Shown here piece after piece: positions 2,365 to 6,973 of a DNA stretch of 20,506 nucleotides. The notes under the pieces are model-generated. The model was not told where the DNA came from and ran no database searches. It saw nothing but the letters and a program-made list of their open reading frames with translations. The DNA comes from a phage: assembly GCA_026165385.1 (NCBI GenBank), contig GCA_026165385.1_4524.3. One strand, written 5' to 3'. The stretch's first letter is position 1. Each line of letters begins with the position of its first letter. The position numbers and the translations under genes are program-made.

Positions 2365-3300
2365 TTATTCTGCAAATAATTCAGTAACGTCTGAAATTAC
2401 TTCGTAACGACAAGTACGCATCTTAGCATCACCATAGTCAACTGGGATGGATACAACATCACGTGGATGAACTTTAACCTTAACAACTTTATCTGAGCTT
2501 GAACCAAAGTGGCGAATATAAGATTTAGCACAAACGTGGAGACCGCGAGAACAGGTTTGAGTATCGTCGTCGTTAACTCTAGTACGAGGCATTGAAACAA
2601 CTTTACCTGGGGAGTTATCAAATGTACCACTATAGCAGTCTAAATAGTCCTTACGAACTACTTTCCATGCATAGAAATGTCCGTCTTCAGTGATTTCAAT
2701 ATCATTTGCAACCAAGAAGTCGAATAAACGTTGTACAGCTTTTTCGCTCGGGTTTTCTAACAGGTTTTCAAGGAACGGCAGATAGAATTTAAAGTCTTCA
2801 CCTTTTTCCATGGAATCAATAATACGGTTAACCAGTCCTGAACGAATCTCTATACCTTGATAAAATAAACTACCACCTTCAATAGTAACATTACCATCAA
2901 CAAACTTAGTAATAGCTTTCTTGACGTTAATAAGTTCGACAGCTTTACTAAGGTTTCCTGCGACCAGATTAGCTTTAATTTCTTCAAAATTTGCATGACT
3001 TGATGGGGTCGCATTGTATGCTACGCGTCCTTCAATAATTGAAATAAATTTAGATGACGCGTTCCATACGATTTCAGGACGGTGTCCGCCAATAATAGGT
3101 TCATCATTTTCTGGGATCTGTTCTTCGTCTTCAAATTCAGCTGCTTTCTCTTCAGCTTTAAAATTCTTAACAATCTTACGAAGAGTATCTGTTGAAATGT
3201 CGAAGTAATCGGCAATTTCTTTACGAGTCCATTTGCCTGATTCAACCAGGCCGTAAGCTTCTAACTGTTCTTCTTGGGACAAGCATTTAATATTGTACAT
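2365..3300 (-). CDS. rIIB: rIIB protein, 311 aa
   Basis: N-terminus MYNIKCLSQEEQ matches my memory of T4 rIIB; size about 312 aa; directly downstream of rIIA; SD AAGGAAACATT-ATG. Confidence 0.85.
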   Translation of the reverse strand: MYNIKCLSQEEQLEAYGLVESGKWTRKEIADYFDISTDTLRKIVKNFKAEEKAAEFEDEEQIPENDEPIIGGHRPEIVWNASSKFISIIEGRVAYNATPSSHANFEEIKANLVAGNLSKAVELINVKKAITKFVDGNVTIEGGSLFYQGIEIRSGLVNRIIDSMEKGEDFKFYLPFLENLLENPSEKAVQRLFDFLVANDIEITEDGHFYAWKVVRKDYLDCYSGTFDNSPGKVVSMPRTRVNDDDTQTCSRGLHVCAKSYIRHFGSSSDKVVKVKVHPRDVVSIPVDYGDAKMRTCRYEVISDVTELFAE

Positions 3301-3309
3301 AATGTTTCC

Positions 3310-5523
3310 TTATTTGGCCGCTTCCACGGCCTTCATGAATTTAACGATTTGAGCGACCTGTTCTTTGGAAAGAGTACCACGTCGTCCCATGTAGTCTGAC
3401 ACAATATGATAATTGGTTTCGAATTCAATAACCATTTTATCATCATTATCGTAAGCATTATCTTTAAGCTTATCGAAAATTTTAGCACACAATTCTAACT
3501 TCTTATTCAGGTCTGTATTAGTAGCACCTGCGAATCGATTCCATCCCCAACGATTATTTACTGTTGAGAGTTTTGCAAAGTCTTTACTGATTTCTTTGTT
3601 CTTAGAGCTAAAATACTTACTAAGGAAGTTAAGCTCTTCATTACGAGTAATATGATTCAAATAAGGCTGTGCTCTACGACTTGGTGATACATACTCATCA
3701 TAATCCACTTTATCGATTAGCGTAATATAGTCATTAATTGATTTTTCGAACAAGCATTCTACTTCACCAAGTTTACGAACTTTCTTAGCAATCTGTGGAC
3801 GAACTACAGTGAACTCTTTAATACCTGACAAATCAGCAATACGAGTCAAGAAATTGGAGTCATAGTTCAACCAACCTTTATCTGCGTCAAGACATTCAAC
3901 GTTAGAACGATTACGAACTATAGCATAACCTTGGATTTCATCAGCTTCACTCGCCGGAATAAAGAGATCTTCTGATACCCAAACATCGTTTTCATTCTTA
4001 AAGAACCGATGAGCACTTGGTGATTTAGGACGAGGCTCATTAGTCCGTTTCCTGACTTCAATCCATGGCTTAACGATTTGTAAAAGCTCTGAAGTCTTGT
4101 ACATGTTAATGTTGTCGCCATCAAAGATAACTTTAAGGCGTTCCAGAAGTTTCATTGCATCTTCGTCTGTAGGGTCAACGAATAGTACGCTTTTACCAAA
4201 ACCGCGTGGAACTTTACCAGTTAATTTAACCTCGTCTTTAGACATTTCAATTGAATTAAGAGCTCGCATTAATGGAACGCGTCCCTTAACGTCGTCAATA
4301 ACAATTTCAACGTTTTTAATGTTAATGCCAATCAAACTGTTAATTGAAATGGTTGCCGTTGAGCTACCGCTTTCACGAATACGACGAAGACGAGGGGATT
4401 CAACGATATCGTATACGACGCCAAGATTACACCATTCGGGTCCCATTTTAAAACGTTTGTACAACTCAGAATAAGTTAGTTGTTCTTTAGAGTATTTCAG
4501 TGATTCAATATTAGACCCGGCCTTTTCCATGTATTTACGAGCGGTATAGCCAAGAGAATCAATTTCACGGAACACATGATGTGGGTATTTACAATCAATC
4601 CATTTCTTAGAATCTTCAGCGAACAATTTAGCATCGATTTCTGCAACGCGTTTATGGATATTTGCTACTGTACGTTTATCAAATGACAATGCTTCGCGAG
4701 ACGGAGCTACATCTAGTTCACCCATAGGGAATTTAATATAAGCTGTAGTGCACCGCGTCATCATCCATGTTTGTTCTTTAATAACACTTCCGATTGGATA
4801 TACAATACCACCATAAACAGCCATGATATTACCACGTTCACCCCATGGAGCTTCCTTGGCCAAATATACATCGTCAAATTCTGGGAAGTATTTAATATCT
4901 TTAACACCGCGAACTTCTGCAATATCACCTAGAGGACGCATAACATATGCAATTTCGGATGCGAACTTTTCAAAATCTTCCGGGTTAACCGGTACAACTA
5001 CTTCTACACCCGTACGGTCATTAGGGCCCATCTTATCTACAAAGGTCGGCTTAATTTGTGGACCTGTGTCATCTTGGTAGATTACGTAACCACGAACTTC
5101 GCCATTGTGATAAGACGTAAGGTTAAACGTATCAGTATATGCTAGTGGAGCTTTAGAACCGAGTCCGAATCCACCAATGAAATCGTTACTCGATGTTTTA
5201 GTTGAAGCAAAATATGAGTTATAAATTCCTGGCTCTTCGTCATTACCTCGAATGGTGAAATCGCTCATACCAGGTCCAAAATCACGAACTACAAAACGTG
5301 GGTCTAAACGACCTGGTGCCTGAACAATAAACTTATCAGTGCAACCATTAAGAATTTGTCCATCGATACAGTTTGTGATTAATTCACGTACACAAGCCAA
5401 TTCTTTGTTTGTATAAAGGTCATTAGACAAAATCTTATAAACTTTACTATTGCCTTGAATAGTGAATGCTGTGCTCTTACCGCCTGAACCAATAATCGTT
5501 TCTTTAGCCGTTTCAATAATCAT
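3310..5523 (-). CDS. rIIA: rIIA protein, 737 aa
   Basis: Size and position match T4 rIIA (about 725 aa); followed by rIIB, preceded by a small rIIA.1-like ORF. Confidence 0.9.
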   Translation of the reverse strand: MIIETAKETIIGSGGKSTAFTIQGNSKVYKILSNDLYTNKELACVRELITNCIDGQILNGCTDKFIVQAPGRLDPRFVVRDFGPGMSDFTIRGNDEEPGIYNSYFASTKTSSNDFIGGFGLGSKAPLAYTDTFNLTSYHNGEVRGYVIYQDDTGPQIKPTFVDKMGPNDRTGVEVVVPVNPEDFEKFASEIAYVMRPLGDIAEVRGVKDIKYFPEFDDVYLAKEAPWGERGNIMAVYGGIVYPIGSVIKEQTWMMTRCTTAYIKFPMGELDVAPSREALSFDKRTVANIHKRVAEIDAKLFAEDSKKWIDCKYPHHVFREIDSLGYTARKYMEKAGSNIESLKYSKEQLTYSELYKRFKMGPEWCNLGVVYDIVESPRLRRIRESGSSTATISINSLIGINIKNVEIVIDDVKGRVPLMRALNSIEMSKDEVKLTGKVPRGFGKSVLFVDPTDEDAMKLLERLKVIFDGDNINMYKTSELLQIVKPWIEVRKRTNEPRPKSPSAHRFFKNENDVWVSEDLFIPASEADEIQGYAIVRNRSNVECLDADKGWLNYDSNFLTRIADLSGIKEFTVVRPQIAKKVRKLGEVECLFEKSINDYITLIDKVDYDEYVSPSRRAQPYLNHITRNEELNFLSKYFSSKNKEISKDFAKLSTVNNRWGWNRFAGATNTDLNKKLELCAKIFDKLKDNAYDNDDKMVIEFETNYHIVSDYMGRRGTLSKEQVAQIVKFMKAVEAAK

Positions 5524-5535
5524 ATTTTTCTCTCA

Positions 5536-5736
5536 TCACAAGTTACGTTTAAAAATTTCTGCTACTTCAAGAAGTTCTTCTTTAGTAGCTGTATCGGTTT
5601 GTATTTTATATCGAATTTCTTTAAAGCGTTCTTTAAAGGACTCGGCTGATTCGATATCAAAAAATCTTTGGATAAGCCGGAATTCCCGGAGCACTGCTTT
5701 ATCAAAAAGTTCCAAGTCCACGTTATATGTTCTCAT
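5536..5736 (-). CDS. rIIA.1-like small protein, 66 aa
   Basis: Small ORF immediately upstream of rIIA, as in T4; named by position only. Confidence 0.5.
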   Translation of the reverse strand: MRTYNVDLELFDKAVLREFRLIQRFFDIESAESFKERFKEIRYKIQTDTATKEELLEVAEIFKRNL

Positions 5737-5761
5737 AATATTCTCTTCAGTAGATTCCTAG

Positions 5762-5812
5762 GGCACTATTACTAAAGACCATATAATCTATCATCTTATG
5801 TGTAATAGTGCC
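5762..5812. repeat. Perfect 11-bp inverted repeat (GGCACTATTAC / GTAATAGTGCC) with a 29-nt AT-rich spacer, between the glycosyltransferase-like gene and rIIA.1
   Basis: Arms at 5762..5772 and 5802..5812, read directly; spacer contains a TATAAT/ATTATA element. Confidence 0.6.
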
Positions 5813-5828
5813 TCAGGCTATTCAGGAT

Positions 5829-6929
5829 TTACGCTGTGAAGATTTTATCCCACATCGCAACAACTGCATCTCGATTATACTTCTTCCATACTGCTTCAGC
5901 ACGTTTAACTCGAGCTTCGTATGTGTCAGTGAATTCTAATACAGCTTTTGTGTAAAGCGCAACTACTTCTTTCTTAGGAGTAGAGGAATCAATTTCTACA
6001 CGCACAGTATCTGGGTCGTATTCGAATGTCGCATGAGGATAATCCTTAAAAACTAACTGGATTACAGGGACACCTTTAGAGATGGCTTCAATAGAACTAT
6101 TCTCTACCGTACCTGTGTCAGGACACGTATTAATAAGTGCTTTAGCTGTTTTAAGACGTTCCATGATTTCACTGTGTGGAGCATCAATAATAACAGGATA
6201 CTTAGCCGGTGGTGCCCATTTGCTTGGACAGTATCCTGCACCATTTTCGCCTAGTGCTTTAATCGCTTCAAGAGCAACATCAGTACGACGCATTTTAGTG
6301 TCATAACGTTGTGCACTAATAATCAGATCAGTCGCCGGAAGAACTTCAGGTTTCTCATTCAAACAAATAACTGGATAATCTTCGGCTTCAAACAACGGAT
6401 TTGCTCGCCAATAATCATAATCAATTTTGTCAGTCAGACCTGAAGTCATATAACAATATTTGCGTTCAAATTCACGGAAGGCTTTAGTAGGAGCATAACT
6501 CTTACCACCATTCTTATGAATTTGAATAGTCTGGTCCCAAATTTGAACAATACCACGAGATACCGGTTCAAATGGTGTTGCCATAAAATTCTTATGAACT
6601 TTAGAGAGACCTGCGTCTTTAATTGCCTGAACGGTTAGTTTAGTCGGTTCCATAGTAACAACAAAATCGTATTCATTAATGCTGGCTAGTTCAACAATCT
6701 TACGAGCCATAGTATAACTCATACCTAGACTGAATTTAGTCAGATGACCAACAGGATGGTGATTAACTTTCCAGTCACCAAACGTGTCATTATCAAAGCC
6801 GATATAATCAATATCAGCACCGATGGACACAAGATATTTCAATACGTTCAAATGAACCGCTTCAAGACCACCTTGTACACGTTCTGGGTTAAATGGGACT
6901 GCACGAGATGGGATAAACATAACTTTCAT
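5829..6929 (-). CDS. GT-B fold (GT4-like) glycosyltransferase-like protein, 366 aa; candidate DNA-sugar transferase
   Basis: N-terminal MKVMFIPS...GGLEAVHLNVLKYL and C-terminal ENSSIEAISKGVPVI fit the GT4 GG-x-E and E-x7-E/PVI motifs; sits between rIIA.1 and gene 39 with its own SD, flanked by hairpins. Confidence 0.55.
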   Translation of the reverse strand: MKVMFIPSRAVPFNPERVQGGLEAVHLNVLKYLVSIGADIDYIGFDNDTFGDWKVNHHPVGHLTKFSLGMSYTMARKIVELASINEYDFVVTMEPTKLTVQAIKDAGLSKVHKNFMATPFEPVSRGIVQIWDQTIQIHKNGGKSYAPTKAFREFERKYCYMTSGLTDKIDYDYWRANPLFEAEDYPVICLNEKPEVLPATDLIISAQRYDTKMRRTDVALEAIKALGENGAGYCPSKWAPPAKYPVIIDAPHSEIMERLKTAKALINTCPDTGTVENSSIEAISKGVPVIQLVFKDYPHATFEYDPDTVRVEIDSSTPKKEVVALYTKAVLEFTDTYEARVKRAEAVWKKYNRDAVVAMWDKIFTA

Positions 6930-6939
6930 AATTAAGCCT

Positions 6940-6973
6940 TATTAAAATTAAAATGAAGCTCCCGAAGGAGCTT
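6940..6973 (-). terminator. Intrinsic terminator-like hairpin overlapping the gp39 stop codon: AGCUCC-UUCG-GGAGCU followed by CAUUUUAAUUUU
   Basis: Plus strand 6957..6972 agctcccgaaggagct, U-rich tail from 6940..6956. Confidence 0.6.

Follow-up and report, generated by a model that had tools for sequence, protein, structure and literature searches.

A 366-aa open reading frame with features of a glycosyltransferase (GT) lies between rIIA.1 and the topoisomerase II large-subunit gene in a 20,506-nt stretch of phage DNA (contig GCA_026165385.1_4524.3; hereafter, the window). The locus raises the question of which sugar this protein transfers, and onto what. An initial annotation of the window had proposed a sugar transferase for hydroxymethylcytosine (hmC), encoded at the locus that in T4 is occupied by gene 60 and mobA. 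The reading frame was found as described, with an ATG start, in the gene order rIIA, rIIA.1, GT, topoisomerase large subunit (Table 1). It is not a chance reading frame, as 212 phage records contain it conserved over the full length, and it has a crystallised, 98%-identical orthologue. The comparison with T4, where the order is rIIA - rIIA.1 - 60 - 60.1 - mobA - 39, is only loosely right, as the equivalent of gene 60 sits within the window's topoisomerase gene, forming its 3′ end. The GT gene is, thus, an extra gene and no replacement of gene 60. The fused (60+39) topoisomerase gene has neither the gene-60 translational bypass of T4 nor the 60.1 and mobA insertions; the same fusion is already annotated in RB69. 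The gp56-type dCTPase, on which the initial annotation had built its proposal, is indeed encoded in the window; in RB69 this enzyme is RB69p028 (Table 1 of PMC13326640). It shares the DNA-modification pathway with the GT gene, since it excludes unmodified dCTP from DNA.

Table 1. Positions, in the window, of the glycosyltransferase gene, its motifs and the features around it
Feature	Position	Strand	Basis or remark
rIIA	3310..5523		
rIIA.1	5536..5736		
Spacer between GT stop codon and rIIA.1, 92 nt	5737..5828		
Hairpin in the spacer	5762..5812	-	MFE -28.6 kcal/mol, z -4.4
GT CDS, 366 aa	5829..6929	-	ORF listing of the window; PHROG 8302; identity to RB69 and CAU_ECP01 proteins; Bas46 annotation; PDB 9IQZ/9IR0
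C-domain motif ENSSIEAISKGVPVI, residues 276-290	6060..6104	-	E281 invariant, E276 near-invariant
R208-x5-R214, start of C-domain	6288..6308	-	both Arg invariant in family alignment
N-terminal glycine loop and helix, GGLEAVHLNVLKYL, residues 20-33	6831..6872	-	position; G20 near-invariant in family
Shine-Dalgarno-like AAGG	6937..6940	-	7 nt upstream of GT ATG; sequence reading
UUCG-tetraloop hairpin AAGCUCC-UUCG-GGAGCUU	6956..6973	-	terminator-like scan and sequence
Topoisomerase II large subunit	6972..8789	-	unsplit, one 605-aa ORF
gp56-type dCTPase/dCDPase	18574..19095	-	Pfam dUTPase_2 E 1e-6; Bas46 annotation 'dCTPase / dCDPase enzyme'

We compared the window and its GT with known phages and proteins. 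Over its full 20.5 kb, the window shares 97.9% identity with Escherichia phage ChristianSchoenbein (Bas46, locus tags bas46_), a Mosigvirus, whose counterpart of the gene, bas46_0103, carries the GenBank label 'putative hmC-arabinosyltransferase'. The GT itself is 98.9% identical to RB69 ORF003c/gp3 (RB69p003, NP_861693), with identical synteny, and 99.7% identical to a protein of CAU_ECP01; identity was 95-99.7% in 154 records. It matches PHROG 8302 over residues 1-366 of 366 (E 4e-222). By its full-length match, high identity and synteny (the order rIIA.1 - GT - topoisomerase is common to RB69, HY126 and Bas46), the protein belongs to the RB69 ORF003c/PHROG 8302 orthologous group. A profile of the GT family found a single entry among PDB sequences, 9IQZ/9IR0 (E 7e-196), entitled 'Glycosyltransferase subfamily 4-like N-terminal domain-containing protein'. 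This crystallised HY126 protein is 98% identical to the window GT; 8 of 364 residues differ, none of them at a family-invariant position. The window GT is practically the same protein as RB69 gp3, bas46_0103 and the HY126 GT (98-99% identity, equal length, same locus), and differs from this group by a few conservative substitutions only. The two structures presumably come from He et al. 2026 (Nat Chem Biol).

The window gene is, therefore, the published RB69 ORF003c/gp3 glycosyltransferase, a known enzyme rediscovered: it has been described in the literature, annotated in GenBank and crystallised. Thomas et al. 2018 found arabinose in RB69 DNA, and proposed ORF003c as an arabinosyltransferase from HMM, HHpred and Phyre2 analysis (PMC6024577). 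The initial annotation had wondered whether the gene is a homologue of the RB69-group candidate next to rIIA, which it is; the idea it presented as untested had, however, been in print since 2018. What the present analysis contributes is corrected chemistry (5-hydroxycytosine rather than hmC and, probably, the second rather than the first sugar) and not a discovery.

We analysed the fold of the protein. A single-sequence AlphaFold model was unusable (pLDDT 37.7) and was replaced by an AF2 model built from a 12-sequence alignment of the family (pLDDT 92.7, pTM 0.88). The latter has two Rossmann-like beta/alpha domains, an intervening cleft and C-terminal helices returning to the N-domain, the architecture of GT-B enzymes. 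Foldseek against the PDB returned, at TM 0.95-0.97, two structures released on 2025-07-16: 9IQZ, and 9IR0 ('phage HY126 glycosyltransferase with UDP'). The next matches were BH4 glucosyltransferase, PimA, BshA, MshA and WaaG (E 1e-10 to 1e-12, 11-14% identity). The window protein thus has a GT-B, GT4-like fold, as the initial annotation had read from its motifs. It had also, rightly, set the protein apart from the T4 glucosyltransferases: no sequence homology was found to T4 alpha-glucosyltransferase (AGT, PDB 1Y6F/1XV5) or beta-glucosyltransferase (BGT). To our knowledge, the nearest structural neighbours are all retaining enzymes.

The kinship with cellular GT4 families was taken from structure, because a word-indexed protein search reached only 5 clusters, and a profile search run exhaustively against 1.84 billion representatives only 11 (clusters at 50% identity, E<=1e-3). 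The window GT matched no Pfam family even at E<=10 and no NCBIfam model, and so falls outside the CAZy GT4/Pfam Glycos_transf_1 (PF00534) profile; the PHROG label was uninformative about function as well. The 12 family members gave sub-threshold Pfam matches only (GT4-conflict 0.0028, Glyco_trans_1_4 0.013, Glycos_transf_1 0.048); published HHpred reaches GT4 structures (PMC6024577). In contrast to the cellular GT4-type GT-B enzymes (PimA, BshA, MshA, WaaG, sucrose-phosphate synthase, BH4 glucosyltransferase; 10-14% identity), the window GT has no Glycos_transf_1 or Glyco_trans_1_4 match at E<=10 and no strict EX7E motif, its predicted acceptor is a sugar on DNA, and its assigned linkage is beta.

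Both peptides on which the initial annotation relied, GGLEAVHLNVLKYL and ENSSIEAISKGVPVI, are present in the protein. The glycine-loop motif of the GT-B N-domain touches the donor phosphate in related enzymes. In the alignment of Thomas 2018, Gly-20 was paired with T4 AGT Gly-15, and the arginine numbered 207 there with T4 AGT Arg-204 (PMC6024577). R208 and R214 are candidate diphosphate-binding residues. E281, aligned with T4 AGT E311 in the same study (PMC6024577), is the counterpart of the Glu that binds the nucleotide ribose in GT-B enzymes. The second peptide had been described as an E-x7-E/PVI signature, of which the PVI half is GT4-like and the literal E-x7-E is missing. The motif reads E276-x4-E281 followed by A-x3-G-x-PVI, and only its second half (EA-x3-G-x-PVI) resembles GT4. 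The C-domain of the window GT has no strict EX7E, as G273 takes the place of the first Glu; the sole E-x7-E of the protein begins at residue 86. Binding of a nucleotide-sugar donor in the C-domain is supported by the UDP complex of the HY126 protein (9IR0) together with the invariant R208, R214 and E281. The donor sugar is predicted to be arabinofuranose (Araf), from the literature on homologues (PMC13326640).

The acceptor named by the initial annotation, hmC, does not agree with the published chemistry, as MS and NMR place the arabinose in ether linkage to 5-hydroxycytosine (5hoC; PMC13326640; PMC13390438). Lee et al. 2026 found cytosine wholly replaced by mono- and di-arabinosylated 5-hydroxycytosine (PMC13326640). 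In RB69 the modified base is beta-D-Araf-(1-3)-alpha-D-Araf-O-5-dC (MS/NMR; PMC13326640, NAR 2026), while Acinetobacter phage DLP3 carries a third Araf in beta-(1-5) linkage (PMC13326640). The Mosigvirus NP has a mono/di mixture of about 1:4 (PMC13390438); Bas46 and Bas47 are reported to be doubly arabinosylated, and Serratia/Prodigiosinella phage LC53 singly. A flavin-dependent homologue of ThyA produces the 5-hydroxy-dCMP (PMC13326640; PMC13390438). Two sequential transferases have been described, one of them encoded between rIIA and the topoisomerase gene (PMC13390438). The other GT of RB69 is gp46:47, split in the record by a sequencing error, and was proposed as the first (alpha) transferase, with RB69p003 labelled 'beta-arabinosyltransferase 2' (PMC13326640).

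We searched phage records with tblastn at E<=1e-5 for family distribution and copy number. The GT family was present in 212 records, 156 of them Mosigvirus-type coliphages and Shigella phages (90-99.7% identity). The other 56 were below 60% identity, nearly all being Acinetobacter T4-like phages with two copies each at about 43%. The same set of records was recovered with a divergent family member as the query, and no Klebsiella, Serratia, Proteus or Enterobacter phage was among the 212. The family of the first transferase, encoded in the modification cluster, was found in 349 records, in one copy per genome beside the ThyA homologue, in phages of Escherichia, Acinetobacter, Klebsiella, Shigella, Serratia, Enterobacter, Proteus, Yersinia and Erwinia, LC53 included. 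One record with the GT family bears the name 'Tegunavirus', and the record of Yersinia phage TG1 has the first-transferase family only. Tegunavirus is the genus of Yersinia phage TG1/R1-RT; the record of that name may carry a second transferase or may be mislabelled.

This distribution bears on the nature of the acceptor. The closest structural neighbours of the GT work on lipids, thiols, pterins and LPS, the Mosigvirus gene lies outside the modification cluster, and one metagenomic homologue adjoins dsbA and ligase genes. These facts would suit an enzyme acting on a host envelope glycan, a protein or a small molecule, whose link with DNA modification is a coincidence. However, among cultured phages the family occurs only in lineages known for poly-arabinosylated DNA, both Acinetobacter copies sit inside the modification cluster, and the DLP3 homologues are active on DNA in vitro. 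A non-DNA acceptor is, thus, highly improbable, and the window GT is very probably a DNA arabinosyltransferase of the arabinosyl-5hoC pathway.

We then considered which arabinose it adds. The window GT aligned at full length with two adjacent genes of the Acinetobacter phage Maestro, gp078 (43% identity, E 8e-111) and gp077 (41% identity, E 1e-100), and G20, R208, R214 and E281 are invariant and common to all three proteins. On gene order alone, Maestro gp078 and gp077 appear to be the equivalents of DLP3 gp77 and gp76, and through these genes the window GT is homologous to the chain-extending DLP3 enzymes. DLP3 gp76 and gp77 together with UDP-Araf converted RB69 DNA to the tri-arabinosyl form in vitro, were active only as a pair, and no single GT acted on bare 5hoC DNA (PMC13326640). 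In contrast, the window GT had no detectable similarity to the first transferase of Maestro, gp080 (BLASTP E 0.98). It does not belong to the first-transferase family (RB69 gp46:47, DLP3 gp79), and the Mosigvirus gene lies away from the ThyA-like 5hodCMP synthase. The first arabinosyltransferase works in the same pathway and is also a predicted GT-B enzyme, but is unrelated in sequence to the window GT and more widely spread (349 versus 212 records).

Copy number points in the same direction. Among the handful of chemically characterised phages that the comparison covers, the number of copies of the family equals the number of arabinoses minus one: none in LC53 (mono), one in RB69, NP and Bas46 (di), and two in Maestro-type phages, where Maestro and related Acinetobacter phages are counted as tri-arabinosylated because they share the gene layout of the tri-arabinosylated DLP3. 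Family kinship, distribution and copy number, all correlative, fit chain extension and argue against a role next to the base, as proposed in 2018 and in the initial annotation. The proposal that the sugar goes onto the base itself is, hence, most likely wrong, and the evidence favours transfer of the second arabinose onto the first, which we consider the probable function of the window GT as judged from sequence comparison.

The assignment of 2018 is different: there ORF003c was 'the' arabinosyltransferase, by HHpred and Phyre2 (PMC6024577), and would attach the first arabinose to the modified cytosine itself. In GenBank, Bas46 is annotated in line with this base-proximal assignment, and the HY126 orthologue was the GT picked for crystallography. 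The proposal, however, is older than the discovery of the second GT, gp46:47. Mono-arabinosylated phages such as LC53 keep the cluster GT and have no member of the window GT family, the cluster GT occurs in about 137 more records, and the DLP3 gp76 and gp77 homologues were inactive on 5hoC DNA (PMC13326640). Addition of the first arabinose by the window GT is, therefore, unlikely.

It could also be that the enzyme has no step specificity and adds either sugar, or that it works only in a complex with the cluster GT. The pair-only activity of DLP3 gp76/gp77 shows that cooperation exists within the family. But the mono/di mixture is explained equally by incomplete second-step transfer, nothing points to an interaction with gp46:47, and the Mosigvirus gene is unlinked from the cluster; we regard both versions as improbable. 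The joint activity of DLP3 gp76 and gp77 does make the lone action of a single-copy GT an extrapolation. DLP3 gp77/gp76, as seen in Maestro gp078/gp077, belong to the same narrow family as the window GT; they are, however, two paralogues in the modification cluster that act jointly and add the third (1-5) arabinose, whereas the Mosigvirus GT occurs once, away from the cluster, and the second (1-3) arabinose is the one assigned to it. RB69 gp3 is not among the enzymes marked as experimentally confirmed in PMC13326640, and in the literature covered, which is without Mahler et al. 2025 (Cell Host Microbe) and He et al. 2026, neither RB69 gp3 nor an orthologue from Mosigvirus is assayed directly.

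Assuming addition of the second arabinose, the reaction may proceed as follows. The soluble GT-B (GT4-like) enzyme would bind UDP-D-arabinofuranose, which the phage makes itself through a pathway whose genes lie in another part of its genome. Its acceptor would be replicated phage DNA, in which cytosines are replaced by 5-hydroxycytosine bearing one alpha-D-arabinofuranose. Addition of the second arabinose would then give the beta-D-Araf-(1-3)-alpha-D-Araf-O-5-dC that is the major modified base of RB69-group phages. We infer that the longer sugar chain may increase protection from host nucleases and from defences recognising the mono-arabinosylated base, and the second step in particular is deduced in the same way. 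According to a secondary source, Bas46 became sensitive to a plasmid-borne defence when an arabinosyltransferase, 'Aat', was deleted.

As the first sugar is alpha and the second beta, one of the two transferases must invert if both use a single donor anomer; the anomer in which the phage makes its UDP-Araf decides which one. It is conceivable, though rather doubtful, that the window GT is an inverting beta-D-arabinofuranosyltransferase, built on a scaffold that is closest in structure to GT4-type enzymes, all of them retaining. In that case it would represent a mechanistically distinct new GT family, recognising a sugar displayed on double-stranded DNA.

Arabinosylated 5-hydroxycytosine, a hypermodification of phage DNA characterised only recently, stops many restriction enzymes and has an effect on CRISPR and type IV defences. 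Knowledge of the gene that sets the length of the sugar chain aids prediction of defence sensitivity and the engineering of therapeutic Mosigvirus phages. Public annotations trail the 2025-2026 literature and would mislead automated hmC calls. In the Maestro cluster (MT949699.1, locus 3765-10300) all products are annotated as hypothetical proteins, apart from the ThyA homologue, labelled 'dCMP hydroxymethylase', and many Mosigvirus records are annotated likewise.

The genomic location of the gene varies. Acinetobacter phages carry both copies within the modification cluster, where the ThyA homologue, the first GT and the kinase are their neighbours; the Mosigvirus gene is not linked to that cluster. 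A third location was found in a metagenome, and together the three suggest that the GT gene is a mobile accessory module of T4-like phages. The metagenomic member (Ga0489998_000752, 3040-4224) is divergent (35% identity) and, at 394 aa, extended at its C-terminus; it lies downstream of DNA ligase and Phage_DsbA genes on a short T4-like contig.

Two hairpins flank the GT gene (Table 1), neither of which matched a known RNA family in Rfam. The one in the spacer has perfect 11-bp arms (5812-5802 and 5772-5762) and no trailing U-run. It is nearly invariant in RB69, HY126 and JK45; the stem differences are confined to one base pair, which is A-U in the window, A.C in RB69 and G.U in HY126. The UUCG hairpin lies a short way upstream of the GT start codon, where it overlaps with the stop codon of the topoisomerase gene, and a U-rich tract comes after it. 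Its folding is unexceptional (z -1.0), and it resembles an intercistronic hairpin of the T4 type or a weak terminator.

In Shigella phage JK45 (NC_054940.1 2129-4520), locus 1499-2093, the full 366-aa gene is followed by a 136-aa ORF repeating its C-terminal part, and the 92-nt hairpin spacer is present in two identical copies. An intron or disruption behind the apparent 1.6-kb 'split' of the gene was considered and rejected in favour of a partial tandem duplication. About 500 bp (3′ end and spacer) are duplicated in tandem at the JK45 locus, unless this is an assembly artefact. The JK45 record is classed as Tequatrovirus, and its GT region is Mosigvirus-like.
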